Positions 14,679 through 63,668 are shown, counted from the stretch's first letter. The stretch: DNA of 64,000 nt from Coriobacteriia bacterium (GCA_009784345.1 WRBW01000001.1:32971-96970), one strand, 5' to 3'. Made by a program: numbers and translations. Notes: generated by a model from the sequence alone, not told the origin.

Positions 14679-14836
14679 TTCTTTGATTCTCCTTTTTGCA
14701 GATAGACGGGAGGCAACGAAAGTCTAGGTTAGCACACTGGCGGAGTGCGTCCATGAAAAATGGACCGCAACAGCTTGTGCGTTGCGATCCACTCTTTTGA
14801 GTTCATTTGCCCTGCGCTGGCTTGCTGCAGGTGGTG

Positions 14837-17710
14837 CTAGCGGCTTTCCTTAATGGCTGCCTCAAGTGGTGCCAGTACTGAAGGTACCAAGCGCTCGTTG
14901 CCGTAGCTTGACCCGAGGTTCAGTTCTGCACGTGTCTGTGACGACAGGGCCGTAAAGAGTTGTGCGGCACTGAGGGCTGAAGGTGCGGGTGCGACGTCAC
15001 GACCCAGAGCTCTAGCCAAGTCTGGGTCAAGGTCACGAACAATATTATGACCGCTCATTGCCTCCACCATACTTGCTGGCGCCTTATGACAGGTCGTACA
15101 AGTGATCTCCTGACCCGCTGCCTTCGCCGCATTAATATGATTCAAAATGGGTGTTCGCAAACGATGATCTTGACCATCCGCGCGCGAGTGACATACGCCG
15201 CAGGCTGAAGGGTTTTCTGCGGTCATGTCAACGCTAGGGTTGCTGGTCTCGCGGATAGCTCCGCGTTGTACAGCATCCCAGTAGTCAGCATGTGCAGAGG
15301 CGAGATCCATGGACCCAAAGCCAAAACCTTCCCAGCGTTGTTCATCTGGGTTATAGGTTGGTGCGCCATGACATCCAGAACCAGAACAACCATTGTCCCT
15401 GCCGTCGGCAATAATGAGACCCGCGTCTACCGTATGCGCTTGAAGCATACGAGTTGGGCCACGGTGCACTTCTGCATCAGGGCCGCCGTGACAGGCCAGA
15501 CAACCAGAGGTCTCTGGGTCACAATCGCGCAGCTCTTCTTTCAGCTCTGGATGCGCCAGCCAGTTGATCTTGCCGCTGTCAGGTGCTGTCTCGAACTCGA
15601 CCCCGTGGCATTTCTGGCAGCCATAGTCGTAGTTAAAATCTGTAATGCCGCGTGAGGTCACAAAGGCGTGTTCCTTGCGCAGGCTTTCGGTAAAGTGGCA
15701 GGTAGCACAGGTCGATGCGTCATAGGTGATGGTATCGCCCGTGAAGACGTTTTCATCCAGGAGGCCTGTTTTGAACTCCCAGCTAAAGGGCGTCATTTCG
15801 ACATAGTCTTTCGAGCCCAGGAAGGCATCCAAAAAGCCGCTGACCGTAACGAAATGCCAGGTCATCTCTGTGCCCAGGTTCATGGGGATGGTCAAGACCG
15901 TATCGCCCTGTGACCACACAGCGTTGTCCCAATCAAGCGTCACATCAACCGTAACAGGGTCGCCGCCGCGGTTTGCTTCGCTATAACCAGTAAAGCTGAT
16001 TTCACCACGCACATCGACGCCTGTCTGCATGGGGCGGTCAAAGCGCACTACCAGGTCAACTGACAGGTCATCGCCCACCAGAACGTCCTCGGCGCCATGC
16101 TGTGGTGACACAGCATCAGGTGCCGGAGTCTTATCGTTATCAGAAGTGGCAGCTACTGAAGCTGTCACCATCCAGGGTAGCCAATTGTTGGTGCCGGCAC
16201 CCGGTGTCGCAGGATTGGGGGTAATAATACCCTTGCCCAGCTCGCCCTGGCGATTGTCACCCCAGGTCCACAGACGACCGTCACTATCTTTGGCAGCCGT
16301 ATGGGTGTAGCCTGCATCAACCTCTGTCCAAGCATCAACGCCGGCTGCGATGACCTGGACCGGTCTATTGCGCAAGTCGGTGTCGCCCAGACCGTGCTGA
16401 CCATAGCTGTTGGCACCCCACTTGAAGAGGCGTCCATCCGTGGTCAAAGCAGCAGAGTGGTTTCCATTAGCTGATACGGCAGCCCAAGTAGGCGTACCGG
16501 GCACATCTGTCACGCCAGGCACATTCGTGATGCGCACTAGAGAGCTTGTTCCAGTTGACATTGTCCCCTGCCCTAGTTGCCCAGAAGTATTGAGGCCCAC
16601 GCCATAAAGATTGCCAACCGCGTCAATGGCAAGGGTGTGATTCGCGCCAGCAGAAACGGCAACCCAGGATTGCGGCGGACCTGCAATACGCTCAGGAGTA
16701 CGATTGTTTGCGCCGTAATTCCCAATGCCCAGCTGGCCTGAACCATTGGCACCCCAGCCATACATAAAGCCATTGCTGTCGATTGCTACGGTGTGATTCA
16801 CACCGGCAGATACTGCTGTCCAGTAAGCGCCTGCACCCGTTGGGTTTGCTACACGCTGTGGCACATTGTACTGAGCCAGGGCAACGTTACCGAGTCCTAA
16901 TTTTCCTTCGATGCTGCCACCCCAAGACCAGAGGCGACCTTCGGTATCAAGGCCCAGGGCATGATTGCTGCCGCCAGCGACCGATGCCCACTCGACCGCA
17001 GGGGTTACCGCAGGTGCTGTTACCATCTGAGGTGTGCTGTTAACAGCCGACAGGCTGCCAGCTCCGAGTCCCAAACGGCCGTCCTGCCCATTACCCCAGG
17101 TCCACAGTTGCCCGTCCTGATCGATGGCCATCGCAAAACCGCCCGACTGTCCCATCTGGTACATGCCGTCTTGTGTCTGGCTAGCACCAGCAGAGGCACT
17201 GACATAGCGCCAAGCGCTAACCCCATCAGGGAAGGGTACCATCGTAGGCACATGGCGATAGTCAGTATCGCCCAGTCCCAGCTGACCATTGTCATTCAGA
17301 CCCCAGGACCACAGCGTTCCATCGCTGCGAATCGCCAAGGTGTACTCGAGTCCCGTTGCCGTCTGCAAGACATGATAGCGACCACCAAAGGGGTCATCTT
17401 CTACCGCTGCAAGCTCATCTTCAGTCATGACGACGCCGCCGTCACTGACAACATAGCCATCGGCGGTCAAAATATTTAACGTTACATCAGAAATCGAATG
17501 GTTCTCTGCAGGATTTGCAGCAGAGCTCACCACAGGGTTTCCGTAAGATAGTTCACTTGGTGAAGCGAAGGTAACATTTGTTACTGCTAGAAGAAACGTC
17601 AAGACCAGCGATGTCAACAAAAGAACTTTGTTTGTGTGCCCAGAACTCCGTTGGATGGACGTCATTTTCACTTTCTGTGGCGGTCGCACGTTCATAGTCT
17701 TAACCCTCAT
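14837..17710 (-). CDS. secreted RCC1-repeat beta-propeller protein with C-terminal multi-CXXCH (multiheme cytochrome c-like) domain
   Basis: Start chosen at MRVKT (RBS AAGAAGGAA); signal peptide ...LLLTSLVLTFLLAVTNVTFA. At least six RCC1 repeats (WSWGLNDNGQLGLGDT, WTWGNGQDGRLGLG, WSWGGSIEGKLGLG ...), an Ig-like linker, then CATCH, CQKCH, CLACH, CSGSGCH (CX4CH), CGVCH and CTTCH. Confidence 0.7.
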   Translation of the reverse strand: MRVKTMNVRPPQKVKMTSIQRSSGHTNKVLLLTSLVLTFLLAVTNVTFASPSELSYGNPVVSSAANPAENHSISDVTLNILTADGYVVSDGGVVMTEDELAAVEDDPFGGRYHVLQTATGLEYTLAIRSDGTLWSWGLNDNGQLGLGDTDYRHVPTMVPFPDGVSAWRYVSASAGASQTQDGMYQMGQSGGFAMAIDQDGQLWTWGNGQDGRLGLGAGSLSAVNSTPQMVTAPAVTPAVEWASVAGGSNHALGLDTEGRLWSWGGSIEGKLGLGNVALAQYNVPQRVANPTGAGAYWTAVSAGVNHTVAIDSNGFMYGWGANGSGQLGIGNYGANNRTPERIAGPPQSWVAVSAGANHTLAIDAVGNLYGVGLNTSGQLGQGTMSTGTSSLVRITNVPGVTDVPGTPTWAAVSANGNHSAALTTDGRLFKWGANSYGQHGLGDTDLRNRPVQVIAAGVDAWTEVDAGYTHTAAKDSDGRLWTWGDNRQGELGKGIITPNPATPGAGTNNWLPWMVTASVAATSDNDKTPAPDAVSPQHGAEDVLVGDDLSVDLVVRFDRPMQTGVDVRGEISFTGYSEANRGGDPVTVDVTLDWDNAVWSQGDTVLTIPMNLGTEMTWHFVTVSGFLDAFLGSKDYVEMTPFSWEFKTGLLDENVFTGDTITYDASTCATCHFTESLRKEHAFVTSRGITDFNYDYGCQKCHGVEFETAPDSGKINWLAHPELKEELRDCDPETSGCLACHGGPDAEVHRGPTRMLQAHTVDAGLIIADGRDNGCSGSGCHGAPTYNPDEQRWEGFGFGSMDLASAHADYWDAVQRGAIRETSNPSVDMTAENPSACGVCHSRADGQDHRLRTPILNHINAAKAAGQEITCTTCHKAPASMVEAMSGHNIVRDLDPDLARALGRDVAPAPSALSAAQLFTALSSQTRAELNLGSSYGNERLVPSVLAPLEAAIKESR

Positions 17711-17902
17711 AGCATCGTTCCTTCTTATGGCATACCGCCCCCCATTCGACGGAGCAGCATAGTTCATGTATTAATGGACGAATCATTACACAGTAAACGT
17801 AGTCCATTATGCCATGTATGCAGCGATAATTACTAGTCTAAGGGGGGTCGTGAGCACCACTTATTCACAAGTGATACATATGATTTGCCCATCACTCACA
17901 AC

Positions 17903-18334
17903 TTATGTGCTTAATATAAGCGCATTGAGCTCTTTTGCCGCCTTGTGGAGGAGTGCGTCCATCTCCTCAAGCGAGCTACCTCCATAGATACGCAGGCGAT
18001 AGGTACCGCGCGGGTCATCTTTCGGGATACCCGTTTGACCGCGGACAGTGCTTCGCTCAACACCACTCGCGACCAAAATTTCGACCGCAAGGTGCTCGAG
18101 CAGATGCACCGTCTGGGTCTGGCGCGCTTCGGTCCGAAAGCTACGATGGCGACCACTGTCGCAGCGGTGGATGCGCAGGCCTGGGTAAGCCTCAAAGAGG
18201 GGGCCGACATCGAGACCTGTTGTCATGACGGGTGTTCCGGGTTCCAGCGTCACATCAAAGCTCGCACACGACAGGTCCTGGTCGTAGGAAAGCGGAGTTA
18301 TGCGAAAAGGACTACGCGACATTTTCTGGGTCAA
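17903..18334 (-). CDS. hypothetical protein (143 aa)
   Basis: Coding-like composition on the minus strand (…HLLEHLAVEILVASG…SLEEMDALLHKAAKELNAL). A 135-aa ORF on the opposite strand (17945..18352) overlaps it completely; the true strand is unresolved. Confidence 0.35.
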   Translation of the reverse strand: MTQKMSRSPFRITPLSYDQDLSCASFDVTLEPGTPVMTTGLDVGPLFEAYPGLRIHRCDSGRHRSFRTEARQTQTVHLLEHLAVEILVASGVERSTVRGQTGIPKDDPRGTYRLRIYGGSSLEEMDALLHKAAKELNALILST

Positions 18335-24850: not shown

Positions 24851-24926
24851 TGGTGGAGGCTAGGGGGATCGAACCCCTGACCTCTGGCTTGCAAAGCCAG
24901 CGCTCTCCCAGCTGAGCTAAGCCCCC
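24851..24926 (-). tRNA. tRNA-Ala (anticodon TGC), CCA encoded
   Basis: Reverse complement GGGGGCTTAGCTCAGCTGGGAGAGCGCTGGCTTTGCAAGCCAGAGGTCAGGGGTTCGATCCCCCTAGCCTCCACCA. The G3:U70 identity pair is present. Confidence 0.9.
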
Positions 24927-51043: not shown

Positions 51044-53974
51044 ATGACCCGCTGGTACCAGCTCGACCGCACCGAAGCATTGACGAAAATAGGCAGCGAT
51101 GCCACGACCGGGCTGTCCAGCGATGAGGCCCGTCGCAGGCTGGAAAAGTACGGCCCGAACCAGCTTAATGAGGCTCCGGCTACCCCGCTGTGGAAGGTCT
51201 TTGTGCTGCAATTCAAGGACTTTTTGATCTACATTTTGCTGGCAGCCGTCCTGATTGCCGCCCTGCAAGGCCAAATCATCGAGGCCATTGCGATTCTGAT
51301 AATCCTCATAGTCAACGGCATCCTAGGCTTTGTGCAAGAGTACCGCAGCGGCAAGGCCCTCGAAGCCCTGAAGCAAATGGCAGCGCCCATGGCCTATGTC
51401 ATGCGCGACGGCAGGCAGCAGCATCTGCTGTCAAGCCAGCTGGTGCCCGGCGACATCGTCATGCTCGAGGCCGGCAATACCGTGCCTGCCGACGGCCGCC
51501 TCATTGATGCCGCTGCCCTGCAGATTAATGAGTCCGCCCTGACCGGCGAAAGCGAACAGGTCCGCAAGACCGCTGACACCCTGACAGGCGACCACGACAT
51601 CCTGGGCGACCAGGAAAGCATGGTCTTTGCTTCAACGACGGTCAGTGCTGGACGGGGCACCCTTGTCGTGACCAGCACCGGCCAGTCAACAGAAATGGGC
51701 AAAATCGCCACCCTGCTGGACAGTACCCAGCAAGGCGACTCGCCGCTGCAAATAGAAATCGAGCGCACTGGCAAGCACATCGGCATCGCCATACTGGTCA
51801 TCGCGGCAATCATCTTTGTCCAGGGCATCCTCGCCGGCAGCCTGCCCCTGCTGACCGATGCCAGCAGCAGCCTGAGCCTGGGCCAACTGCTGGCAGACCC
51901 CGGCTTTCGCGCCATTTTGACCTCGACGATGCTCGTCGCCATCGCGCTCGCCGTCGCCGCGATTCCTGAAGGCCTGCCCGCCATCGTCACCGTCACCCTG
52001 TCACTGGGGGTCAGACGCATGGCCGCGCGCCACGCCATCATGAAGCGCCTCCACGCCGTCGAAACCCTGGGCTCGACGACCTACATTTGCAGCGACAAAA
52101 CCGGCACGCTGACCCAAAATGTCATGACCGTCAAGCGCCTGGTCCTGGGCACCCAAGTCCTGCGCGTCCACGGAAGCGAACTGGGCGTCTTGCCCCGCGC
52201 GAGTGAACTGACAGAGGCCGCCTCCACAAAAGCGGAGGAGTGCGTCCACACCAGCAGCCCCTGTTCGCCCGTGCAGGAACTGCTTGACGCTCGCATCGTC
52301 AATGAAGCTGCGCTGAAAACACTGCTTTCGATAGCTAGCTCCTGCAACGACGCGCACTACACGGCTGGCGGTGAACTGGTAGGTGACCCCACAGAAACAG
52401 CACTGGTCGCTTGCGTTCGCGACCTGATGCCTGATCTGCAATCGCAGCTGCCGCCGCGCGTGTCAGAAATCCCCTTTGACAGTGACCGCAAACGCATGTC
52501 GGTCATCTTAGATGACTCCAGCGCGGGCCTTCCCCGCTATATTACCTTTGCCAAAGGCGGCTTTGACACCCTCATCCCCTGCTGTACGCATGCTCTCGTC
52601 GACGGTCACATCGTCGCCTTAGACGATGCTCTGCTTGCCCAGCTGAGCGCAGAAAACGAGCGCTTTGCCAGCGAAGGGCTGCGCACGCTCGCCTTCGCCC
52701 TGCGCGAAGACACAGCACTGCCACAGCGCGACGATGACGTCGCGGGCATCGAGTCACGCCTGATTTACGTTGGCATGATGGCCTCGCAAGACCCGCCCCG
52801 CCCCGAAGTCCCCGCAGCGGTACGCACCGCGCAGGAGGCCGGAATTAAGGTCTGCATGATCACCGGTGACCACATCCTGACAGCTAGCGCCATCGCCCGC
52901 GAGGTCGGCATCCTGACTGATGACATGATGGCTGACGGACGCAAGCACAGTATGACGGGTAGCGAAATCGAAGCCTTAAGCGATGACGAACTGGCAGACA
53001 TCGCCTGCGACATTCGGGTCTATGCCCGCGTCAACCCGGAGCATAAAATTCGCATCGTGTCAGCCCTGAAAGCTCGCGGCCAGGTCGTTGCCATGACGGG
53101 CGACGGCGTCAACGATGCACCCGCCCTGAAGCGTGCAGACATCGGCGTCGCCATGGGGGTTGTGGGTACCGATGTAACCCGCGAAGCCGCAGACATGGTG
53201 CTGTCCGACGACAACTTCAGCACCATCGTTGCCGCCGTCGAAGAAGGCCGCACCGTCTTTGCCAATCTAAAGAAAGTCATCATCTACCTGATGGCATCGA
53301 ACTCGTCTGAAGTCATGGTGGTCGCCCTGATCGCGCTCTTTGGAAGCTCGCTTGCCGCCCTCCTTGCCGGCGCTGGTTCAACCGTTGCCGTCGCAAACCT
53401 GCTGCCCCTGCAATTGCTGTGGATCAACCTCATGACTGATGGCTTCCCCGCCCTTGCTCTGGGCGTCGACCCCGCCGAGCGCGACGTCATGGCCCGCCGC
53501 CCCCGTAACGCCCGCAAGCCCATCCTGAGCCGCCAACGCTGGACACAAATCCTGGCCCAGGGCCTGGTGCTGACCGTCGCCGCCCTGCTGACCACCTTTG
53601 TCGTGGCGCCGTGGATGGGGGGCTTACTCCGCCCCGAAATGCCCTCGCTGGCAGACGGCGAAGCCCTGACGCGCACCATCTTGCTGATGAGCATCGCCTT
53701 CAGTCAAATGTTTTTCATCTTCATATACCGCAGCGAAAGCTACAGCGTTTTCTCGCGCGATAGCTTCAGCAATAAGTGGCTGAACGCGACCTTCGTCTTT
53801 ACGGCGCTGGCGCAATTCGTGGTGATTTACGTGCCGGCCTTTGCAAGTGTCTTTGGCTTCGTGCCCTTGAATGTGGCGGAGTGGCTGTCCATTCTGGTCA
53901 TGTCTCTGCTGGCGCTGGCCGCTGCCGATGCCATCGGGATTTTCGCGAGTAAACGTCTTCGTGCCATCGAGTAA
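51044..53974 (+). CDS. calcium-translocating P-type ATPase (P2A/SERCA-PMR1-like)
   Basis: CSDKTGTLTQN, TGDHILTA, GDGVNDAPALKRADIGVAMG, 10 TM; 976 aa. Confidence 0.85.
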   Translation: MTRWYQLDRTEALTKIGSDATTGLSSDEARRRLEKYGPNQLNEAPATPLWKVFVLQFKDFLIYILLAAVLIAALQGQIIEAIAILIILIVNGILGFVQEYRSGKALEALKQMAAPMAYVMRDGRQQHLLSSQLVPGDIVMLEAGNTVPADGRLIDAAALQINESALTGESEQVRKTADTLTGDHDILGDQESMVFASTTVSAGRGTLVVTSTGQSTEMGKIATLLDSTQQGDSPLQIEIERTGKHIGIAILVIAAIIFVQGILAGSLPLLTDASSSLSLGQLLADPGFRAILTSTMLVAIALAVAAIPEGLPAIVTVTLSLGVRRMAARHAIMKRLHAVETLGSTTYICSDKTGTLTQNVMTVKRLVLGTQVLRVHGSELGVLPRASELTEAASTKAEECVHTSSPCSPVQELLDARIVNEAALKTLLSIASSCNDAHYTAGGELVGDPTETALVACVRDLMPDLQSQLPPRVSEIPFDSDRKRMSVILDDSSAGLPRYITFAKGGFDTLIPCCTHALVDGHIVALDDALLAQLSAENERFASEGLRTLAFALREDTALPQRDDDVAGIESRLIYVGMMASQDPPRPEVPAAVRTAQEAGIKVCMITGDHILTASAIAREVGILTDDMMADGRKHSMTGSEIEALSDDELADIACDIRVYARVNPEHKIRIVSALKARGQVVAMTGDGVNDAPALKRADIGVAMGVVGTDVTREAADMVLSDDNFSTIVAAVEEGRTVFANLKKVIIYLMASNSSEVMVVALIALFGSSLAALLAGAGSTVAVANLLPLQLLWINLMTDGFPALALGVDPAERDVMARRPRNARKPILSRQRWTQILAQGLVLTVAALLTTFVVAPWMGGLLRPEMPSLADGEALTRTILLMSIAFSQMFFIFIYRSESYSVFSRDSFSNKWLNATFVFTALAQFVVIYVPAFASVFGFVPLNVAEWLSILVMSLLALAAADAIGIFASKRLRAIE

Positions 53975-54226: not shown

Positions 54227-57200
54227 ATGGATATTCAGGATGTGGTTTCTTCTAGTACTTCTGCCCGGATTATCACAGGTCTCGGGATTCCAGCGCTGAC
54301 AATTATTATCAGCCTTCTCATAATCTTTAGTGTGGCAAACTTTTCTGCCAATGCCGTGGGTGAAGCAAACATTACGGCCATCGAGGCAACACCGACAGCA
54401 TCTCACATGGCGGCAGGATCAGCCGCCCTTGACCTCGTAGATGTGCCTGACCTTCTGGCTACTGCAGACCCAGCAGCCTCAGCCCCAGACCCAGCAGCCT
54501 CAACAGACGACGGCGACCTCGCTCTCATCACCCCCGGCGAGGGCCCGCGGGTACGCCAGGCAACAAGAGGAATCGATGCGCCTTTAGGTGGAAACACCCT
54601 GCAGGCAGGTGACACAACGCGCCTGGTTGTCATGGCAGTAGTTGGCGACCCGGCTGAAGGCTACTATGAGTCCTATCCGGCCAGCCATGCAGGCGTCAAC
54701 AGTGCTCTTACTGACCTGCACCAAAGCGGCGACCCCAGCAGCAGCTACGTCATGTATGTGGGTGCAAACATCACCGGAATTCCTGTTGCACGCTATGCCA
54801 ACACAGAGGCACCCGGAACCTTTTCAGGTCTTGCTGGGCGCATCCACACTTTGGTGATTACCGGCAATGCGCAAGACCCCATAAACACCGCAGCAGCACT
54901 GAATGCTGCTCCTACAGAACGTCGTCAGTTTACCCGCGGTGATGGGGACAGCTGGTTTGGCTCTCACATCATCTTGCGCAATGTGCAGCACAGATTGGGC
55001 AGTAATGTCTACATGAAGGGTCATAACCTGACCCTGGGCGGAAGCTCCTGGCAAACAGCTGCTACTAATTACTTTGGCGGTAGCAACACAGGCAACATCA
55101 CCTCGCGCGAGGGAACGACGACGCTCACGGTCTATTCAACCGGCACGGGTGATTCGAACTTTTTTGGCGGTATGAATGCGGGAACCTTCACCGGTAATAC
55201 CGCAATTGTCATCAGGGGTTCAAGCGGCAACGCCATCATGACGCGTGGCGGCGGAAGCGGTACCGATGGTGCACGCGCCCATGTCATGGGCAACGTATCA
55301 ACGACAATCACGGGTCTCGATACACGCACCTGGGGACTTTCAAGCTTCCTGGGTGGTGTCCACTACGGCAACATTAGCGGGCAGATCACGAACCATATTT
55401 CGGGACCTGGACGTTTTGTGTGGACTGGAGGATCTACCAGCGGTGACGTAGGAGGGGGCCACTATGTCGGCGGATCCCGCACCGGCAGCGTAGGTGGCGC
55501 AGATACCATTGCAGCTCCCATCAAAACTGATGGTCTTGATATGGACTACTCCCCCCTTTTAGACAACACAAATTACGCCATCTTCAACGATATCGACACG
55601 TCGGCCTATACCAACGGACGCAAATACTTCATTGGTGCCAACACAGCTGCAGGCACCATCACAGGCAATGTTATTAATGTAGTAAAGGCCGGCACGGTGA
55701 ACGCAGGTGGGCTTACGGGTCTCCAGGCTCTGGGCGGCATTGGCACAACTATAAACAATACCTGGCCCAGCGCCCTGTCTGGCTCGACCAGCACCGGACG
55801 CGTCACCGGTATTGAGCGTGCGCGTGAACTTGCTGAATCGCAGGCAGGATTTCGTGTCTATGGTAACGCGGTGACCGTTGTGCGCGCGGGTCATATTACG
55901 GCCGGTGGCGATATTAATTATTATCGCGGTGCAGGCTATGGTGGCTATATCGAAGGCGACATTTATTCTGCCATCGGGACAGAAGGCCTGGTCTATCAGA
56001 CGACCCTCAACACCTATCAATACCGCGTCAACCCGAATGCCGGCATATCCCAGGGTTACTCGACCACCTTTGATCTGGTGGGTGGTGGCGGTCGCGAAGG
56101 CTGGAATGACAGCACCTTCATCGCAGGCGATACTCATATCGTCCTGAAGGAAGTGCGCGCCCGCTGGACTTACGGCTCAAGCTTTGGGGGTGTGCTACAG
56201 GGTGACAGCCTGATAGAGCTCCACGCGGGCGTTGTTGACACCCTCGAAGGCGCCGGGTATTTAACCTATGTGCACGTGGGCGACAGCCGCGCAGAGGTTC
56301 ACGGTGGTCAGGTCGAGTGGTTTCTTTCTGGCGGCGGCTGGAACGACCACTGGCATGACGGCAATGTCAGCGTCGAGGTCTTTGACGGCCCGCCCCCAAA
56401 CACGCCCATCATTAACGCATCTATGGGCGGAACTTATGGCAATTCGACAGCTCACTATACCAGCGGGGATTCGACCATGGTGATTCGCGGCGGCGACTTT
56501 AGCGGAGTGCCCAGGAGGGGACCTTCCGGGTTTTCCAGTGGGCCAACCAATGCCGGCTACATCTTTGGCAATGCATCTATGACCCTTGATTTACGGGGCA
56601 ACCAGCACGGCTTTAAAACCTCTGCGGCTAATGCCGTGTCTGCGGGCAGATCCACCGTAGCAAGTGGAGACAGCTACCTGGGCTTTAACCACAATAATAC
56701 GATTGAGCTCAACATCTTCACTGATGACGATGGCGGCGACCTTCTAAGCCGCATGAACATCTACGGGGATGCATCTGCAAGTGGCGTACATGACCGGACG
56801 CGCTCTGGCCACATCACCATGAACATCAATGCACCGGGCTCGACCATCGGTAACCTCTATGCGACCAGCTACGTCAACCTAACGGGAACGGCCACGAGTC
56901 GCATGCTGTGGCGCAATGTTGAAATGAACCTGGTATCTGCAGCAAATATCGAAGGACTATCTGCGGGCAACGGATTTACCGACACAGGGGCAGGTGCTGA
57001 TACCAATACGCTGCGCAGTGATGTGGCGCAGCGCAGCATTGCTGCGGGCAGACAGGCCATCATCAAGGTGGGCCCCCACACTGACGACCCCGCCCACCCC
57101 CTGGGCGAGCGCGAAACGACGGTGCCAGAAAATGGACGCCCTCGCGTCATTAATGTCGCCGGCGTCGGCATCACCGGATTTACGCGGATGGATATCACGC

Positions 57201-59017
57201 GGCGCCTGTTGACAGCAACGGATGGTACGGTTAAAAATGGCGGAGCGCGTGCTAGCCTGGCCACCTTTGCCGAGTACAACAACCACGGTTCGGTCTACCT
57301 GCACGCGGGTCAGGGCGTCGATGCATCAGGCTTTGGCATAAGGCGTGCGGGGCAGTCACTGATTGTCGCCGGAGACCTGCATGTGGTGGGTGAAGGTACG
57401 GCCTATATTCAGTCGCAGGGTGCGCTCAATCAGGCGGTGTTTAACGATGTTCACATAGCTGATACGCTGACCTGGCTGCGTGTGGGTGACACCTCTGCCG
57501 CGAATTTCAGCCCGCTGACCAGCTGGTTTGGTGCAGCTCGAGGCTGGCATGTCTTTACCTTGAATCCGCAGCGTGAGCGTGCGCTGAAAGTCAGCCCCTT
57601 TAATTTGGAAGGCATCGACGAGTCAAATGGTCACACCTATCTGGGCGACAGCGTGGTACCTTCCAGTGGTGCCAGCGGCTTTGCCGTCTGTATTCCCGGT
57701 GCGAAATATCGCTGGCAGGTTACCGCTGGCGAGGGCATGGTCACCCATGATGTGGACATTACGGTAAGCACGGGCGAAACACCCTCGAGCCCTGTGCACG
57801 GTATTGGCTCGGTTGGCAAGGGTGTGCCATCGCAGTCAGGCATGATTGCCGTGCCCTCAGAGTTTGTTCCTGACCCGATGAACTATCCGACCTTTAGTTT
57901 TATCCCCCATGCCCCGCGCGGCGAATGGGTGGAGGGCGTCCAGATTCACCGTTCAGACTGCCTGCTGACAGACCCGCAGCACAGCTTGCGCTGCATCACT
58001 ATTCCTGAAGTTCCGCTGCCAGACTATCACCAGGACTATGTCGATGGCTTGCCCCCAGGCTGGGCCACCTGGACAGCGCAGGGCGATGATCGCTACTTTA
58101 GCTTTGACATTGCAGCTCAGTACACCCATGACTGCGAACTGCAGGCACGCAGCGTCATCATTACCGAGTCTGAAGCGGCAGCGATTGCAGATGCTGGCTG
58201 TATTACGGGCTATCAAGAGGCCATGGGACGCCCCTTCTTTAGGCATGACATTGACGACGCACTGCTTGCAGCAATTCGTCAACCACTGGCTGATGGCCTT
58301 TACTTAAGGTCACATCCCGTGACCTACAGCACGGGGCGCGCCGTAACAGGCGACGTCGCCTCAGCTGCACTCACGACGCTGACGGTTAAGGTCGTTGTGG
58401 TGCGCGATGGCAGCGTACTTTCAGAAGATCGCAGCTACGGCGTATGGGCAAAAGATGCCCGCATGACCTTAAGCATCGCACAGGAGATGCAGCGCGAGCG
58501 CTTAGATAGTCGCTACACCCATGCGATGGCCTTCACCTCGCAGGGAACAACAGATACCCCGACCCTTGCGGCAGGAGTGCTTGAAGACATCAGGTCAAGT
58601 ACGGCAGAACAGGTGCCGCGTGACGTGGTTGCCAGCTATTCGTTCCTGCCCGCAGACGCAGCAGGTTCCGGCACGGCAGATGGGCAGACCTTGGTGCCGG
58701 CGAGCATCGATGTCATCATCAGCATCATCCCGAACTGGCCCACCCCGACGGGTCTTCGCATGAGCAGTGTCAGGCTGGGCAGCCTGTTGCTGTTCCCCCT
58801 GGGGCTTGCCGTGCTGGGTGCCTGCGGCTACGCCGGTCACACCCGGCGCACGCTGGGGCAGCTGATGCCACCGCCATCGCAACAAGGCGAAATCCTTGAC
58901 GCAGGGCACGATAAGCCCAAGCCGCCGCCGTCACCATCGGCAGCAGCTACTGCAGAAGCAGCTGCAGTAGCGCCTGAACCGAAGCCATCAAGCCAGCACG
59001 TCATCTGGAAAATATAG
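54227..59017 (+). CDS. giant secreted Gly/Thr/Ser-rich beta-helix-like repeat surface protein (1596 aa)
   Basis: N-terminal signal/TM (ITGLGIPALTIIISLLIIFSVANFSANA). Dozens of GGxxxG/TGN-type repeats typical of a parallel beta-helix. C-terminal hydrophobic segment plus basic patch (LLLFPLGLAVLGACGYAGHTRR), then a Pro/Ala-rich tail. Confidence 0.7.
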   Translation: MDIQDVVSSSTSARIITGLGIPALTIIISLLIIFSVANFSANAVGEANITAIEATPTASHMAAGSAALDLVDVPDLLATADPAASAPDPAASTDDGDLALITPGEGPRVRQATRGIDAPLGGNTLQAGDTTRLVVMAVVGDPAEGYYESYPASHAGVNSALTDLHQSGDPSSSYVMYVGANITGIPVARYANTEAPGTFSGLAGRIHTLVITGNAQDPINTAAALNAAPTERRQFTRGDGDSWFGSHIILRNVQHRLGSNVYMKGHNLTLGGSSWQTAATNYFGGSNTGNITSREGTTTLTVYSTGTGDSNFFGGMNAGTFTGNTAIVIRGSSGNAIMTRGGGSGTDGARAHVMGNVSTTITGLDTRTWGLSSFLGGVHYGNISGQITNHISGPGRFVWTGGSTSGDVGGGHYVGGSRTGSVGGADTIAAPIKTDGLDMDYSPLLDNTNYAIFNDIDTSAYTNGRKYFIGANTAAGTITGNVINVVKAGTVNAGGLTGLQALGGIGTTINNTWPSALSGSTSTGRVTGIERARELAESQAGFRVYGNAVTVVRAGHITAGGDINYYRGAGYGGYIEGDIYSAIGTEGLVYQTTLNTYQYRVNPNAGISQGYSTTFDLVGGGGREGWNDSTFIAGDTHIVLKEVRARWTYGSSFGGVLQGDSLIELHAGVVDTLEGAGYLTYVHVGDSRAEVHGGQVEWFLSGGGWNDHWHDGNVSVEVFDGPPPNTPIINASMGGTYGNSTAHYTSGDSTMVIRGGDFSGVPRRGPSGFSSGPTNAGYIFGNASMTLDLRGNQHGFKTSAANAVSAGRSTVASGDSYLGFNHNNTIELNIFTDDDGGDLLSRMNIYGDASASGVHDRTRSGHITMNINAPGSTIGNLYATSYVNLTGTATSRMLWRNVEMNLVSAANIEGLSAGNGFTDTGAGADTNTLRSDVAQRSIAAGRQAIIKVGPHTDDPAHPLGERETTVPENGRPRVINVAGVGITGFTRMDITRRLLTATDGTVKNGGARASLATFAEYNNHGSVYLHAGQGVDASGFGIRRAGQSLIVAGDLHVVGEGTAYIQSQGALNQAVFNDVHIADTLTWLRVGDTSAANFSPLTSWFGAARGWHVFTLNPQRERALKVSPFNLEGIDESNGHTYLGDSVVPSSGASGFAVCIPGAKYRWQVTAGEGMVTHDVDITVSTGETPSSPVHGIGSVGKGVPSQSGMIAVPSEFVPDPMNYPTFSFIPHAPRGEWVEGVQIHRSDCLLTDPQHSLRCITIPEVPLPDYHQDYVDGLPPGWATWTAQGDDRYFSFDIAAQYTHDCELQARSVIITESEAAAIADAGCITGYQEAMGRPFFRHDIDDALLAAIRQPLADGLYLRSHPVTYSTGRAVTGDVASAALTTLTVKVVVVRDGSVLSEDRSYGVWAKDARMTLSIAQEMQRERLDSRYTHAMAFTSQGTTDTPTLAAGVLEDIRSSTAEQVPRDVVASYSFLPADAAGSGTADGQTLVPASIDVIISIIPNWPTPTGLRMSSVRLGSLLLFPLGLAVLGACGYAGHTRRTLGQLMPPPSQQGEILDAGHDKPKPPPSPSAAATAEAAAVAPEPKPSSQHVIWKI

Positions 59018-59144
59018 AGGCTGCCCCCAAGACGACCTCCCTGGGCTCGACTGACCCCCATTAGCGAGCCCGCTCACTTCACCAGAAGTCGGCCTGGAGC
59101 CCTGCAGTGATCCCCTAGTCACCTGACAGGACATGCGACTTCTG

Positions 59145-59181
59145 AAAAGTCCCTCGGTACACCCTGGCCGAGGGACTTTTA
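59145..59181. terminator. bidirectional rho-independent terminator
   Basis: AAAAGTCCCTCGGtacaccctggCCGAGGGACTTTT: a 10-bp stem with an A-run before and a T-run after. Lies between the convergent giant-protein and higA genes. Confidence 0.8.
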
Positions 59182-59275
59182 CTTTCCTCTACAGCCCCCG
59201 CGCCAGCATCCCGCTTCTGTCATGCCGTACTCCGACACGACATCTCGCCCTTGATCTTGTCCTGCCTTCTACGCA

Positions 59276-59557
59276 TCAGCGAAACTCGATGTGGAGCTTC
59301 TTGCCAAAGCCCATTGCTATTTGATTGAGCGTTCTGACATTGGGAATGCTTTGGCCCGTCTCAATGCGACTTATATTTGACTGCTTTATGCCACTTCTTT
59401 CAGCTAGCTCTTGTTGGGTAATACCCGTTTCGATGCGAGCTTCGATAATTGCATTCAGTGCTTGCATCTCTCCCTGAAGTGCGTCATATTCACTGCGTAT
59501 AGCTGGATTACACAGAAGCTCTTCCTTATGCAGTTCATAGTTAGTCATTCTTCTCAT
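59276..59557 (-). CDS. higA: HigA-type antitoxin (XRE-family HTH)
   Basis: HTH GITQQELAERSGIKQSNISRIETGQ. Start at ATG with GAGGTG 5 nt upstream. Overlaps the toxin gene. Confidence 0.7.
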   Translation of the reverse strand: MRRMTNYELHKEELLCNPAIRSEYDALQGEMQALNAIIEARIETGITQQELAERSGIKQSNISRIETGQSIPNVRTLNQIAMGFGKKLHIEFR

Positions 59558-59900
59558 TAACACACCTCGCTAAATAATCCTTCTTATATTTTTGAGCCAA
59601 AAGCAATTGTCGCTGTGGAACCTTGCTTTGCTTTTTGATAAAACCATTGGTTATTACACATTTTCTTCCCCGACAAAAGAAATACAAGATCCTAACCTGC
59701 CCATCTCGAGTTCTTGTTCTAAGCTCAAAGAGACCTTTTCCGATATGTTTTGATTCGGGCTCTCCAATCAGATTTCCATACTTTTCAAGTACGTCGATTA
59801 TCGCTAACACACTCGCTATTGCACCGTCGCTGAGACCCTCAATAAAATCTTTAGCAGGACATCTTCCGCTGGGCAATTGGTAATACTCAATTTGAAACAT
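59541..59900 (-). CDS. higB: HigB/RelE-ParE superfamily toxin
   Basis: 119 aa, ...KHIGKGLFELRTRTRDGQVRILYFFCRGRKCVITNGFIKK. The toxin-upstream, antitoxin-downstream order is typical of HigBA. Confidence 0.7.
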   Translation of the reverse strand: MFQIEYYQLPSGRCPAKDFIEGLSDGAIASVLAIIDVLEKYGNLIGEPESKHIGKGLFELRTRTRDGQVRILYFFCRGRKCVITNGFIKKQSKVPQRQLLLAQKYKKDYLARCVNEKND

Positions 59901-59989
59901 CCCGACCTCCTCTCACAATATTACTTTTTTGATATATTGTCAAGCCAAGTGCCGACTATTGATACCTTATCCAACGGACATTAAAGAGA

Positions 59990-60090
59990 GATTAACTCGA
60001 GATGAAAGAAAGCTGAAAGAAAGGTGAACACACTATGAAAGAAACATTAAAGAGAATTAACGCAAGATGAAAGAAACCTTAAAGCAGGTG
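59990..60090 (+). repeat. three degenerate tandem copies of ATGAAAGAAA(C)-NTTAAAG (about 33-bp period)
   Basis: gagATGAAAGAAAgctgaaag..ATGAAAGAAAcattaaagagaattaacgcaag ATGAAAGAAAccttaaagcaggtgg. The third copy opens a 45-codon ORF (MKETLKQVVECVHYCLSPR...). Confidence 0.6.
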
Positions 60091-60214
60091 GTTGAGTGCG
60101 TCCATTATTGCTTGTCACCCCGGCTCCTGAACCGTGGTCACGCCTGGCTGTCATCCCGTACTCCGACACGACATCTCGCCCTTGACCTATACACTACCAG
60201 ATAGATCTGCTAGG

Positions 60215-60256
60215 TTGACCATCTGTATAACAATTGTGTACACTATTGTTATACAG
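60215..60256 (+). promoter_or_regulatory. putative promoter (-35 TTGACC, -10 TACACT) with 12-bp perfect inverted-repeat operator for the Phd/YefM antitoxin gene
   Basis: CTGTATAACAAT tgtgtacact ATTGTTATACAG spans the -10 region. AAAGGAGC RBS, then the ATG at 60294. Confidence 0.55.
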
Positions 60257-60293
60257 ATAGCTCAAACACCCAAACTAGCCAAAGGAGCCTTTC

Positions 60294-60590
60294 ATGGTTT
60301 TCTACACAGTCCGCGAGCTGCGTAACAACACAAAAACGGTACAGCAGGCAATCAAAGGCGGCGGGGAAGTCGTCATTACCAACAACGGCAAACCCTGGGC
60401 ACTCATGCTCGATATTGCAGAAGACGACCTGTTCGAAGTGGTCCATGCAGTCAAGAGTGCCCGTATGGCGCGGGCGCTTGAAAAGATTAGAGAGGATGCT
60501 ATCGCAAACGGCACCGCGGATCTTTCCATACAAGAAATCGATGCAGAAATAGCGAGCTACAGAAATGGAAGGCACATTCAGGCGTTGTAG
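60294..60590 (+). CDS. Phd/YefM-family antitoxin (orphan; no intact toxin downstream)
   Basis: MVFYTVRELRNNTKTVQQAIKGGGEVVITNNGKPWALMLDIAEDD is a Phd/YefM signature. Only a 13-codon ORF follows. Confidence 0.7.
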   Translation: MVFYTVRELRNNTKTVQQAIKGGGEVVITNNGKPWALMLDIAEDDLFEVVHAVKSARMARALEKIREDAIANGTADLSIQEIDAEIASYRNGRHIQAL

Positions 60591-60759
60591 ATAGTTCCCA
60601 GCTCAGACACATTTGGTAGGGCAACACTAAAGATTTCCCCAAAGAGCCGCACATTATGACTCCAGCAGAATTCATCGACTCCATGCGCCTAGAATAAACA
60701 GCAGTGAATACCCCTGTGCCTACCGGCACAGGATCTAAAACAGTCGCTCCGCGAGCGTC

Positions 60760-60933
60760 TTAGTCATCTGGATACCTTTTAGGATCGTCGAAAAATTCCG
60801 CCATATCATCCCAGCCGAAAAGGCGACATATGAGCGACTGGATTTTCATCCCCACAGCAATCACGACCAGACTTAGACCAGCAAAGATGGCCACCCCAAC
60901 AAGTAGTGCTAACAGCTGTATTATCCCCTGCAC
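60760..60933 (-). CDS. small hydrophobic protein, 57 aa (peptide 1 of tandem array)
   Basis: GTG start with GGAGG 10 nt upstream; VQGIIQLLALLVGVAIFAGLSLVVIAVGMKIQSLICRLFGWDDMAEFFDDPKRYPDD; one TM plus an acidic tail. Confidence 0.35.
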   Translation of the reverse strand: MQGIIQLLALLVGVAIFAGLSLVVIAVGMKIQSLICRLFGWDDMAEFFDDPKRYPDD

Positions 60934-60982
60934 TTCACACCTGCCTCCCCGTCACCCCAGTCTCCGAGCCTCACACCCGCCC

Positions 60983-61153
60983 CTAGTATCGGTCCTTGTT
61001 CAGGTCTTTTTGGACTTCTTTCATCAGAGCGATGTTTCGAACCCCCGTCATATCTTGCCGCACCCGCCTCTTGGGCTTCTTCGGGGTCAGAGCTTCATGA
61101 ATCTCATTAAGAACAATAATTCCGGCCAACACAATGAAAATGGCAACTACCAC
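60983..61153 (-). CDS. small hydrophobic protein, 56 aa (peptide 2)
   Basis: GTG start with AGAGGGGG 9 nt upstream; VVVAIFIVLAGIIVLNEIHEALTPKKPKRRVRQDMTGVRNIALMKEVQKDLNKDRY; one TM plus a basic tail. Confidence 0.35.
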   Translation of the reverse strand: MVVAIFIVLAGIIVLNEIHEALTPKKPKRRVRQDMTGVRNIALMKEVQKDLNKDRY

Positions 61154-61313
61154 CTCAATCAACCCCCTCTTTCATCTGATTCAACAATTATGACACTGCG
61201 CCTTGCACAGCACGCCCAGCATCCCCCACTCCTTGTCACCCCAGCCTCGATCCGCAACATCGAGGGTGGTATTGTAGGAGCGAGAGTCCCAGCTTGTGCG
61301 GGGACTGTTAATC

Positions 61314-61418
61314 TTAGGGCCTCAGTGTGTAAAAGAACAGGAAAATGTGCTTAAGGATAATGAACGGAAACGCAATCATAAGCACCAAGCAACCGCCTTT
61401 ATCTTTGAAACGAGCCAT
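61314..61418 (-). CDS. small hydrophobic peptide, 34 aa (peptide 3)
   Basis: ATG with AAGGGGG 6 nt upstream; MARFKDKGGCLVLMIAFPFIILKHIFLFFYTLRP. Confidence 0.3.
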   Translation of the reverse strand: MARFKDKGGCLVLMIAFPFIILKHIFLFFYTLRP

Positions 61419-61581
61419 AATCTAACCCCCTTAGCCTTATCGTAGTTATGATTTACGAGATACATTTTCATCTTCCCACCGTCACTTCCTCCACCTCATA
61501 GATTCCTAGTTTTGGCATCTTGTTTGTCACCCCGCCTGTACGGGAATTACCGCGAGTCTACCCAGCGAGTTGCACCTTAAT

Positions 61582-61725
61582 CTAAGTAATCCCACTGTAA
61601 TCAATGAAGCGATCACTTCTATTCCCTGTAAACATCCACCATGCGGCACATACAAGAATCATGGGCGGGAAAACGAATCCATAGAACGCTACCCACATGA
61701 ACCTCTTGAAATAAATCCATCCCAT
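61582..61725 (-). CDS. small hydrophobic peptide, 47 aa (peptide 4)
   Basis: ATG with GAAGGGAG 5 nt upstream; MGWIYFKRFMWVAFYGFVFPPMILVCAAWWMFTGNRSDRFIDYSGIT. Confidence 0.35.
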   Translation of the reverse strand: MGWIYFKRFMWVAFYGFVFPPMILVCAAWWMFTGNRSDRFIDYSGIT

Positions 61726-62129
61726 AATCTTCTCCCTTCTTTATGCCAGCCTTCCCCAGCTGGCTCATCATCTGGCGGAGCACGTCCAGCATCCCCCACC
61801 CCTCGTCACAATAAGTCTCCCAAACACCTCAGACATACTAATTTCACAAATACCACACAAATGAACGCCCATCTCAATCGCACAAAAAAGAGCCCCACTC
61901 CCGCGAAACTCTCCATTTTCTTGCAACAGAATGACTTCCTTGCAGCGCTAACTTGAAAATATTTTTACGAAACTTGTAACTTTACTTTCAAGTTATCTTG
62001 GCGGAGTACGCCCAAACCTCCCATAGCTGTCCACTTCCTGAGCGAAAGCTGCAGCTGTAGACCAATTTGTATTTATATATGTTAGAATATGGTCATATGT
62101 TAGACATTAGAAAGTGAGGTTTAACCTTT

Positions 62130-62342
62130 ATGAAGGTATCTATTTCGGAATTAAAGACCAATCCTGGATATTATATCGACCTGTCGCAGAATCAAAGAAT
62201 CGCCATCACAAAGAACGGCAAGGTTGTTGCTAACATCATTTCTGCGATACCCTCAAAGCATGATTCGGCACGCAAACTGATTGGCTCACTACCTGCAAAC
62301 CTCGATTACGATGCGCTCAGAGAAGAGCGGATCGCACAATGA
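62130..62342 (+). CDS. vapB: Phd/YefM-type antitoxin of VapBC pair
   Basis: MKVSISELKTNPGYYIDLSQNQRIAITKNGKVVANII; 4-nt overlap with the downstream PIN gene. Confidence 0.7.
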   Translation: MKVSISELKTNPGYYIDLSQNQRIAITKNGKVVANIISAIPSKHDSARKLIGSLPANLDYDALREERIAQ

Positions 62343-62749
62343 AAAAAGTTTTACTCGACACCAATGTCATACTCGACGCAATGACCGCTCGAACAAACAA
62401 CCAGGCACCTGCCCGTATACTCGAACTGGCCGGCGAGGAAGCTTTCGAGGCCTGCGTTACTGCAAACAGCCTGACTGATATTTTGTATGTAACACAGCGG
62501 CATTATTCTCAGGCGCGAGCCCAAGAACTTTTGCCTTACCTGCTCAGCTTGTGCACCATTGTCAGCGTTACCGACAAGGACTGTTATACCGCCGCGTCAT
62601 GGGACTGGAATGACTTTGAAGATGCACTGCTCTGCGCTAGTGCTGCGCGCGAAAATGTCGACCTTATCATCACCAGCGACCAGGACTTTATCGCCCAAAA
62701 TGCACCAATCACCGCCATGACACCCCAGGACTTCCTCTCATTCTCCTAG
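62339..62749 (+). CDS. vapC: PIN-domain ribonuclease toxin VapC
   Basis: VLLDTNVILDA N-terminal PIN motif; conserved acidic residues (D..E..D..D); 136 aa. Confidence 0.8.
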   Translation: MKKVLLDTNVILDAMTARTNNQAPARILELAGEEAFEACVTANSLTDILYVTQRHYSQARAQELLPYLLSLCTIVSVTDKDCYTAASWDWNDFEDALLCASAARENVDLIITSDQDFIAQNAPITAMTPQDFLSFS

Positions 62750-62825
62750 CCTATCTCAGTACGCCCAAACCACCACACCACATCACCCACCCACTCACCC
62801 CTATTGAGCATCTTTACTCAAGACA

Positions 62826-62886
62826 CTGAGCAGATTTGTTCAGTGTATTGAACATTTTTGTTCACTATACTGAACAAATCTGCTCG
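62826..62886. repeat. 58-bp near-perfect palindrome at truncation point of ATPase pseudogene
   Basis: GAGCAGATTTGTTCAGTGTATTGAACA tttt TGTTCACTATACTGAACAAATCTGCTC: 27-bp arms with 2 mismatches. Confidence 0.8.
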
Positions 62887-63478
62887 TATAGACATCACAG
62901 ACTCAGAAAGTGGCCAAAACTGGATACAAGAGCAATGGCTTGCAGCGCGCATGCTCATTACAGAACAAAGCCCTTCTGCGATTCTAGTACTGGATGAAAT
63001 CCAAAGTGTTTCACAGTGGGCAACCATCTTAAAAATACTCTGGGATCAAGATGCTCGAACGGGAGTCGACCTCCGCGTAGTGGTGACGGGCTCTTCTGCG
63101 CTGCTGCTTCAGTCAGGCTTGTCAGAATCTCTCATGGGGCGATTTGAGATTATTCCCTCGACTCACCACAAACCCATCTTACAGACCCTGCAAAATATGG
63201 CCGACTCGCAGAAAGTGCCATCGGAGCTTATCTGCTGGGGCGCGGAAAGGTCGATGGCTTTGACCTGTACTGGTGGCGCGATGGAAACCTAGAGGTCGAC
63301 TTCGTCATTAAAAAAGGAGTCCATGCTATAGGCATTGAGGTAAAGTCTGGCAGCATGAAAAGCTACAAGGGCATAACAAAGTTTCGCGATAGCTTCCCTG
63401 ATGCAAAAGTTATCTTAGTCGGGGATAGCAACATTACCATTGAGGACTTTCTGCTGGGCAAAGTCCCCCTGTTCTAGA
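62858..63478 (+). pseudogene. N-terminally truncated, frameshifted AAA-family ATPase (AAA_14 + DUF4143 type)
   Basis: ILVLDEIQSVSQW...LRVVVTGSSALLLQSGLSESLMGRFEIIPS, then after a frameshift at about 63290 ...VDFVIKKGVHAIGIEVKSGSMKSYKGITKF...KVILVGDSNITIEDFLLGKVPLF. No Walker A region. Confidence 0.5.
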
Positions 63479-63668
63479 GCCAGCAAACATAAAGCGGCGG
63501 AGTACGCCCAGCATCCCCCACCCCTCGTCATTCTGAACTTGATTCAGAATCTCGCCCTTGACCTTCATTGCACCTGTGCCTAACGGCACAGGACCAGTAT
63601 CCGTTGCTTCGCTACGGGCAAACTGTCGCAGAACCGTCATTGAGGATCAAAGGCCGCAGTGACGGCAT

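Follow-up and report, generated by a model that had tools for sequence, protein, structure and literature searches.

The window analysed here, a 64,000-nucleotide stretch of a Coriobacteriia bacterium genome (GCA_009784345.1, WRBW01000001.1:32971-96970), carries on its minus strand a gene whose predicted product joins a signal peptide, an RCC1-like beta-propeller, an immunoglobulin (Ig)-like linker and a C-terminal module with six c-type heme attachment motifs (Table 1). The open reading frame (ORF) extends at most over 14837..17767 (minus strand, 976 amino acids), and residue numbers follow this 976-residue frame; the coding span given by the initial annotation, 14837-17710, holds on the same strand, as the Shine-Dalgarno sequence just upstream makes Met20 the best-supported start. 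An apparently conserved 'RRND' upstream of this start in homologue P0002 was rejected as coding, being the Shine-Dalgarno sequence read in frame. The window protein matches P0001, from Joint Genome Institute (JGI) contig Ga0123353_10000092, at 100%, and the JGI gene model places the start at a GTG at 17533 (898 amino acids); because this start removes the signal peptide, automated annotation would miss secretion. Past the stop codon lies a stable terminator-like hairpin (dG -24.6 kcal/mol, z = -5.07; 0 of 200 shuffles fold equally well), which a terminator consensus scan missed because of its long loop. Given this hairpin and its U-run, the gene looks monocistronic.

Table 1. Features of the RCC1-Ig-hexaheme gene and its predicted product (window coordinates; residues in the 976-residue frame)
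Feature	Position	Strand	Residues	Basis or remarks
Coding sequence of RCC1-Ig-hexaheme protein	14837..17710	-		957-aa precursor from Met20; stop included
Shine-Dalgarno sequence AAGAAGGAA	17718..17726	-		Direct sequence reading; 8 nt upstream of ATG at 17710
Predicted Sec-type signal peptide	17564..17710	-	20-68	Basic n-region; core VLLLTSLVLTFLLAV; TFA↓SP cleavage-like site
Seven-bladed RCC1-like beta-propeller	16178..17380	-	~130-530	Pfam and blade motifs
Ig-like/E-set beta-sandwich linker	15752..16177	-	~531-672	AlphaFold2 (AF2) model; Big_5-type in homologues
Predicted hexaheme c-type cytochrome module	15038..15751	-	~673-910	Motifs, invariance, profile matches
Predicted heme site 1, CATCH	15695..15709	-	687-691	C, C and H invariant, 30/30
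Predicted heme site 2, CQKCH	15605..15619	-	717-721	Invariant
Predicted heme site 3, CLACH	15488..15502	-	756-760	Cx6CH in distant family branch
Predicted heme site 4, CSGSGCH (Cx4CH)	15368..15388	-	794-800	CxxCH in some orthologues
Predicted heme site 5, CGVCH	15188..15202	-	856-860	Invariant
Predicted heme site 6, CTTCH	15086..15100	-	890-894	Invariant
Candidate distal ligands			His700, His768, His778, His826, His907, Met774 or Met820	Module residues
Conserved C-terminal tail	14840..15037	-	911-976 (66)	LSxQTRAELNLG...RLxPxVLAP; alignments
Intrinsic terminator-like hairpin and U-run	14756..14796	-		~40 nt past stop codon; RNA fold and sequence

A C-terminal module with six invariant heme-type sites

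Twelve of the 13 cysteines of the protein lie inside six heme-type motifs in its C-terminal part, where the five CxxCH and one Cx4CH motifs reported by the initial annotation are all present. Such a density greatly exceeds what chance would produce: with the C-terminal 317 residues shuffled 200,000 times, no shuffle had more than two CxxCH motifs, compared with five here. No CxxCH was found in any other real ORF of the 64-kb window. In an alignment of 30 relatives, with identities down to 22%, all six Cys-Xn-Cys-His sites are invariant (30/30), so that the cysteines whose loss in orthologues would have spoken against a cytochrome are in fact retained. Sites 1, 2, 5 and 6 are strictly CxxCH across the family, and a core of the form FxFGxMDLASAHxDY is likewise invariant. 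Outside the motifs, His700, His768 and His826 are conserved in 30/30 relatives and His778 in 29/30; members with the RCC1 head additionally keep His907, Met774 and Met820 (alignment of seven homologues), and the resulting five histidines plus methionine would be enough for six six-coordinate hemes. In the distant members P0128-P0146, site 3 reads Cx6CH (CG[VT]xxxACH) and site 4 varies between Cx4CH and Cx11CH. Should these sites bind heme at all, such unusual spacings might call for a specialised heme lyase.

Profile searches place the module among c-type cytochromes. The window protein itself has Pfam matches of significant E-value that fall just under the cutoffs (given below), and relatives with the same module pass them: P0131, P0138 and P0146 reach 30.7, 28.0 and 25.8 bits with Cytochrome_C7, and one relative passes the NapC/NirT threshold (27.0 versus 24.1 bits). 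When the family profile was compared with the sequences of the Protein Data Bank (PDB), 49 of the 50 matches listed were c-type cytochromes, the one non-cytochrome having E=6.4; the cytochromes include NrfA (E=1.7e-6), MtrC (6e-5 to 3e-4), the reaction-centre tetraheme cytochrome (9e-4) and NrfH (1.4e-3). These matches are weak and limited to heme-pair stretches, and a phmmer search with the single module sequence found none among PDB sequences. The pair formed by sites 5 and 6 is the one matched both by the C7, c3 and NapC/NirT models of Pfam and by NrfA in the PDB. On motifs, conservation and profile matches, the reading of this domain as multiheme cytochrome c-like is therefore supported: to judge from its sequence, the module is cytochrome c-like and lies outside any solved or modelled family, and the six sites presumably bind heme covalently.

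Export signal, propeller, linker and tail

The signal peptide claimed by the initial annotation is borne out by one N-terminal hydrophobic segment with a 15-residue core (residues 48-62), the sole hydrophobic 19-mer stretch of the whole protein, after which cleavage would occur at TFA↓SP. Equivalent N-terminal signals are present in orthologues, and the basic n-region lacks a twin-arginine motif, which fits Sec export of an apocytochrome. The propeller, for which at least six RCC1 repeats had been proposed, has seven: PF25390 (WD40_RLD) scores 252.5 bits against a cutoff of 150, PF00415 (RCC1) 218.9 bits (E=8.1e-66) over seven stretches, and seven blade motifs begin at residues 153, 222, 280, 336, 388, 448 and 500. 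No pyrroloquinoline quinone (PQQ) or cd1 family of Pfam matches it; the matches are to RCC1-type families only.

No Pfam model matches segment 531-672 on its own, and PF13205 (Big_5) scores there in homologues. An AF2 model of this segment built from 16 homologous sequences has seven strands and a good score (predicted local distance difference test, pLDDT, 75.5; predicted template modelling score, pTM, 0.72), and a Foldseek search with it returned CopC/PcoC, the Ig domains of L,D-transpeptidases (Ldt), titin and antibodies (target-normalised TM 0.60-0.65), as the proposal of an Ig-like linker had anticipated. The best structural matches are the copper-binding CopC/PcoC proteins, at about 11% identity and at the level of fold only.

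The tail is 47-55% identical to those of orthologues. It shows no sortase signal (that is, xPxTG, hydrophobic segment and basic tail); the protein ends in ...LAPLEAAIKESR, without a C-terminal hydrophobic segment. A tail of the form LSxQxRAxL...L.PGVLAP follows the module in nearly all family members and matches no known sorting signal, and some distant members end in IP[AT]SALPATS..LF, also without a membrane segment.

A small family with exchangeable heads

An exhaustive search with a hidden Markov model of the module over 1.84 billion representatives returned only 42 proteins at E<=1e-3, of which 26 reach E<=1e-10. The weakest matches belong to animal C2H2 zinc fingers or to generic cytochromes; the boundary of the family therefore lies near E=1e-8, and matches weaker than approximately this value were left out of it. 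This leaves about 31 clusters, all from metagenome-assembled genomes (MAGs) of uncultured Coriobacteriia or Actinomycetes; named members are labelled only 'hypothetical', 'Ig-like', 'IPT/TIG' or 'RCC1 family', and none comes from a cultured organism. Six proteins cover the full length of the window protein at 37-42% identity (one labelled Coriobacteriia); all keep the six motifs, and among them site 4 switches between CxxCH and Cx4CH. The propeller by contrast has more than 3,000 matches, many with Ig-like, FN3 or SLH-type partners, and only 7 of the 120 best of these cover the C-terminal part.

The module always stands at the C terminus of family members, and what precedes it varies: RCC1 with Big_5, an NHL propeller, IPT/TIG, InlB-B repeats or Ig domains, with near-headless forms at the short end (P0129, 292 amino acids; P0133, 393 amino acids). 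Orthologues of the window protein themselves differ in having one or two propellers, and in being with or without a Cys-rich stalk and a sorting signal. A sortase-type GPxTG[DE] signal is found in the longer orthologues P0002, P0003, P0004 and P0008 and in P0121-P0124. In the long orthologues, Cys-rich repeats of the form CPCLTGGTCNCxxxxCNCDPxRCTC, which are non-heme motifs, lie between the module and GPxTG[DE].

Two observations concern the surroundings of distant members. At the P0132 locus (L006 12219-16953), the cytochrome gene is directly followed by a gene for a membrane thiol-reductant protein of the HMA-DsbD/CcdA type and by those for an FtrD-like protein and a heavy-metal P-type ATPase; and the genes for P0132 and P0136 both lie just downstream of dnaX-ybaB-recR.

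Source organism and synteny

The sequence derives from JGI sample 3300010167 (Lab288P3), the P3 hindgut compartment of the soil-feeding termite Labiotermes labralis. The best named matches of its RarA protein are Coriobacteriia MAGs (69-80% identity; Olsenella 69%), which makes the class secure on sequence comparison. Peptide patterns taken from the RCC1 subfamily located the module in one of 185,579 species-representative genomes, the MAG Lab288P1bin60, which has been published as Coriobacteriia; OPB41; Rs-J10 group, and the classification of this syntenic sister would place the window organism in the order OPB41. TagF-, TagD- and TagGH-like genes in the window, together with the Gram-positive nature of cultured OPB41, support the monoderm context assumed by the initial annotation, and the PxTG sorting signals of homologues also count towards such an envelope.

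The locus is syntenic in four related genomes, in the order MerR-MurB-CNNM-small ORF-[cytochrome gene]-(XRE-cupin)-MgsA-Cu-oxidase_4. Positional orthologues of the cytochrome are only 39-42% identical, compared with 68-80% for MurB, CNNM and RarA; set against this low identity, the invariance of the heme sites points to strong constraint on them within a surface-type protein that evolves fast. Divergence and variable architecture are typical of exposed surface proteins, which makes the invariance of the sites more telling. The small ORF between the CNNM and cytochrome genes (143 amino acids, 17903-18334, minus strand) is 57% identical across all syntenic loci, has a weak match to the N-terminal domain of Cyanophycin_syn (22.3 versus 27 bits) and shares 23 nt with the end of the CNNM gene.

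As initially described, the XRE-cupin regulator gene follows downstream on the same strand, at a distance of 158 nt. It has its own Shine-Dalgarno sequence and forms a separate transcription unit behind the strong terminator. It is present at two of the five syntenic loci, one sister copy being 92% identical, and at the other three MgsA directly follows the cytochrome gene.

A neighbouring multiheme cluster and heme attachment

More of the genome is visible on a 112-kb contig that shares 14,027 bp of identical sequence with the window; 3-5 kb outside the window it encodes a secreted heptaheme cytochrome of 692 amino acids, whose seven CxxCH motifs hold all 14 of its cysteines and which passes three Pfam thresholds. 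Its gene belongs to a co-directional cluster (L008 2902-7928, 0.4-5.4 kb before window position 1) together with genes for a TPR membrane protein (302 amino acids) and an NHL-repeat membrane protein (639 amino acids). The heptaheme cytochrome was rejected as a paralogue of the hexaheme module (hhalign probability 2%).

A link between the two is provided by the family member P0142. In P0142, the N-terminal half shows homology to the NHL membrane protein encoded next to the window (E=3e-34), and the middle region to the nearby heptaheme cytochrome, over the C-terminal half of the latter (E=5e-11); the hexaheme module stands at the end, that is, as the distal end of a chain of 13 motifs; the gene before it is a homologue of the TPR gene near the window (E=3e-9). 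This fusion constitutes a Rosetta-stone link of the hexaheme module to the TPR-NHL-multiheme cluster of the genome.

In sister genomes, the orthologous locus has one or two NrfA genes at a distance of 5-9 kb, and cultured OPB41 (Anaerosomatales), which include an obligate Fe(III) reducer, have 17-18 multiheme cytochromes and cytochrome c biogenesis genes. A maturation system in the present genome is thereby implied, by the heptaheme cytochrome, by the NrfA genes of sister genomes and by the biogenesis genes of cultured OPB41. The view that extracytoplasmic multiheme proteins are rare in actinobacterial-like genomes is overstated for Coriobacteriia, given these 17-18 multihemes in Anaerosomatales and Cgr1 of Eggerthella lenta.

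Proposed function and alternatives

We propose that the protein is part of an extracytoplasmic electron-transfer system, in which the hexaheme module is an electron-transfer end module and the propeller and Ig-like domain a targeting or spacer head; as a whole, we give this explanation a probability of roughly 0.55. It draws on the C-terminal position of the module behind swappable heads, on the sortase signals and on the P0142 fusion, and for the same reasons extracellular electron transfer is the role that we favour among those first suggested. The initial annotation had named three ways to refute its reading, and none of them did so. The apoprotein would be exported unfolded via Sec by the monoderm Coriobacteriia bacterium, and the cytochrome c maturation system of the genome would attach the hemes outside the membrane. 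An extracytoplasmic electron-transfer chain could then end, on its outer side, in a short electron wire formed by the closely spaced hemes, which would serve as the outer relay or the terminal reductase of extracellular electron transfer. The propeller and Ig-like domain would take no part in redox chemistry and would work as spacer and binding head, so that the wire comes to lie within the cell wall or outside it, or on a particle, polymer or partner. In the longer orthologues, the Cys-rich stalk and PxTG signal would allow covalent wall anchoring; the shorter window protein, having no such anchor, may be released or held non-covalently. For bacteria in the hindgut of termites that feed on soil and humus, likely acceptors would be Fe(III) minerals or humic quinones. 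Export, location, heme attachment, the direction of electron flow and the acceptor are all points that we infer.

Several observations weigh against this reading. The window protein stays below the gathering cutoffs of Cytochrome_C7 (PF14522; 24.3 versus 24.8 bits, E=2.8e-5), the MtrC/MtrF domain II/IV model (PF22113; 23.8 versus 30 bits) and the c3_2 model of Pfam (22.4 versus 25 bits), as well as those of the NrfB-type equivalogs of NCBIfam (TIGR03146, 21.6 versus 166.6 bits; NF008659, 18.8 versus 184 bits). The heme-free AF2 model of the module, from a 30-sequence alignment, is unreliable (pLDDT 52.8, pTM 0.38) and yielded one meaningless Foldseek match in the PDB, so that no fold can be assigned. 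Across the family, only four non-motif histidines are available for six hemes. Maturation genes of the ResB/CcsA/CcdA type are absent from the window, in agreement with the initial annotation, and from the approximately 77 kb of the genome viewed, and none of the eight loci examined has a quinol dehydrogenase or other redox partner adjacent to the cytochrome gene. The placement in OPB41 depends on the sister MAG, as RarA resolves the class only.

The shortage of family-wide histidines leaves room for an open-coordinate, possibly catalytic heme, and the module could instead be an enzyme resembling NrfA, octaheme reductases or MccA (for example a reductase, a peroxidase or an oxidoreductase with a detoxifying function), in which one or two hemes with an open or weak sixth ligand form the active site and the heads serve only for targeting. 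Of the named multiheme families, NrfA indeed gives the best PDB profile match; NrfA genes are also found close to the sister loci, and Cx6CH and Cx9-11CH sites occur in the distant branch; unusual cysteine spacings, for example in MccA, mark special hemes. However, the similarity to NrfA is restricted to sites 5 and 6, an electron-transfer heme pair, the NrfA model PF02335 reaches only 11.8 of the required 24.1 bits, and neither CxxCK nor another known catalytic signature is present in the protein. The NrfB score is far under its cutoff, the five histidines and methionine of the RCC1 subfamily would suffice for six six-coordinate hemes, and P0142 places the module at the end of its 13-motif chain, an arrangement typical of a wire. 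We regard an enzymatic role as unlikely, while giving it real weight. A different division of labour, in which the propeller is catalytic or binds a cofactor and the module only relays electrons, would parallel cytochrome cd1, quinohemoprotein alcohol dehydrogenases and hydrazine synthase; propeller-cytochrome fusions are a recurrent redox-enzyme design, and all seven blades are complete here. Yet the propeller matches RCC1 families only, which bind no known redox cofactor, its number varies between one and two among orthologues, and the same module follows NHL, IPT/TIG, InlB-B and Ig heads or, in P0129 and P0133, almost no head, making a catalytic propeller improbable.

The redox sensing at the cell surface that was initially suggested as a second role would have the protein signal to the XRE-cupin regulator, whose gene follows closely on the same strand here and at one sister locus. 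With a strong terminator between the genes, a separate Shine-Dalgarno sequence for the regulator and its absence from three of the five syntenic loci, the link is weak and we reject a regulatory connection; the protein is moreover secreted and has no transmembrane or signalling domain, and a sensor role is very improbable. Equally hard to credit is that the Cys-Xn-Cys-His sites are non-heme, coordinating metal or forming disulfides in a structural surface-adhesin domain. The animal C2H2 zinc fingers among the lowest-scoring matches indicate that Cys/His composition drives part of the profile signal, site spacing ranges from Cx2 to Cx11, and the long homologues carry an extra Cys-rich stalk that is clearly non-heme. 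Nevertheless, a histidine directly after the second cysteine at all six sites in 30/30 relatives is a signature of c-type heme rather than of zinc fingers, CxxCH is kept strictly at sites 1, 2, 5 and 6, relatives pass Pfam cytochrome thresholds and the specific PDB matches are almost all cytochromes c. The genome also encodes the heptaheme cytochrome, and P0142 joins the module in line with canonical CxxCH cytochrome sequence.

Other features of the window and its surroundings

Positions 24900-48000 form a 23-kb island of approximately 45% guanine-cytosine (GC) content between flanks of approximately 55%, rich in wall-glycan and teichoic-acid-type genes (Wzy, several GT2, DUF6056, GtrII, TagF-like, TagD-like, an ABC-2 exporter and dTDP-sugar enzymes). 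Its edge coincides exactly with a tRNA gene (24854-24926), and this envelope-glycan locus was thus probably acquired horizontally. In sister genomes, the NrfA genes occupy the position corresponding to the island, next to a P-type ATPase gene. A 1,596-residue protein encoded at 54227-59017 (plus strand), with an N-terminal hydrophobic segment, a C-terminal membrane segment and no Pfam match, is probably a large surface protein. A second 976-residue ORF (51044..53974) was rejected as a relative of the cytochrome; it is a Ca-type P-type ATPase, and the equal length is coincidental. Small toxin-antitoxin genes (HTH/Gp49 HigBA-like, Phd/YefM and Phd-PIN) occur at 59000-64000 and at L009 15050-24791, with a DNA methylase and an AIPR abortive-infection gene just past the window, a cluster that looks like a small defence or mobile island.

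Relation to known systems and significance

Among described proteins, the predicted protein most resembles in function the surface and wall cytochromes of Thermincola, with no sequence relationship detected. The nonaheme OcwA and the wall-embedded hexaheme cytochrome of Thermincola potens are likewise secreted multihemes of a monoderm (PMC7720022), and the six hemes predicted here equal the heme count of the latter; for Gram-positive surface multihemes, a function in electron transport across the wall or past it, with minerals, shuttles or oxyanions as recipients, has been proposed (PMC7720022). The present family differs in belonging to Actinomycetota rather than Bacillota, in the propeller and Ig head of the window protein and in the sortase signals of its orthologues, the mode of anchoring of OcwA having been stated as unknown (PMC7720022). 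No chain named OcwA was among the PDB profile matches at E<=10, the presence of OcwA in the PDB set searched being unconfirmed.

The di-heme units of the Cytochrome c7, c3 and NapC-NirT families (PF14522, PF14537 and PF03264), known from NrfA hemes 4-5, NrfH and MtrC domains II/IV, align with sites 5+6 and 1+2, whereas the six-site layout, the FxFGxMDLASAHxDY core and the tail have no counterpart in Pfam, NCBIfam or the PDB. Within Coriobacteriia, the multihemes of Anaerosomatales (OPB41) and Cgr1 of Eggerthella lenta are predicted membrane or surface proteins of anaerobic respiration, including Fe(III) reduction. Expression of Cgr1 in heterologous hosts has been unsuccessful. These multihemes have been described as homologues of MtrA, OmcH, OcwA, CFE_2239 or NapC/NirT, and none has been reported with an RCC1, Ig or other display head or with a sortase signal. 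A seven-bladed propeller is typical of bacterial 'alpha-tubulin suppressor-like RCC1 family protein' entries; its fusion to a cytochrome is confined to the small clade found here. Cytochrome cd1 nitrite reductase, quinohemoprotein alcohol dehydrogenase and hydrazine synthase also combine an exported propeller with one or more c-type heme domains, but the propellers of cd1- and quinohemoprotein-type enzymes bind d1 heme or PQQ and belong to other families, whereas that of the window protein is RCC1-type, interchangeable and without a known cofactor. Literature searches found no earlier description of RCC1, LPXTG/sortase or beta-propeller elements with Gram-positive multiheme cytochromes, so that, within the literature searched, the RCC1-cytochrome fusion is undescribed, as the initial annotation had supposed.

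On these comparisons, the predicted hexaheme module is a previously unmodelled member of the known surface-multiheme class, with a modular and sometimes sortase-anchored display architecture; as a cytochrome family without a Pfam or NCBIfam model or a solved relative, it is new to annotation resources. Gram-positive extracellular electron transfer is understood from very few proteins: a 2020 review names OcwA as the only surface cytochrome characterised in detail, with its anchoring and arrangement on the wall unknown (PMC7720022). The family may offer testable answers at the level of sequence, in its compact hexaheme end module, the sortase signals of orthologues and the swappable heads, and its setting, Actinomycetota in the guts of soil- and humus-feeding termites, makes iron and humic reduction plausible respiratory sinks. 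More tentatively, and at odds well short of even, this may be the first recognised 'display-type' multiheme family of Gram-positives, that is, an electron-conducting adhesin with interchangeable heads, many members of which would be fixed to peptidoglycan by sortase. If so, the family would explain the attachment and placement of surface cytochromes on a monoderm wall, heme sites of the non-standard Cx6CH and Cx9-11CH types would also be in use in a distant branch, and the adhesin would let termite-gut Coriobacteriia attach to humic or iron-bearing particles of soil, or to partner cells, and respire them.

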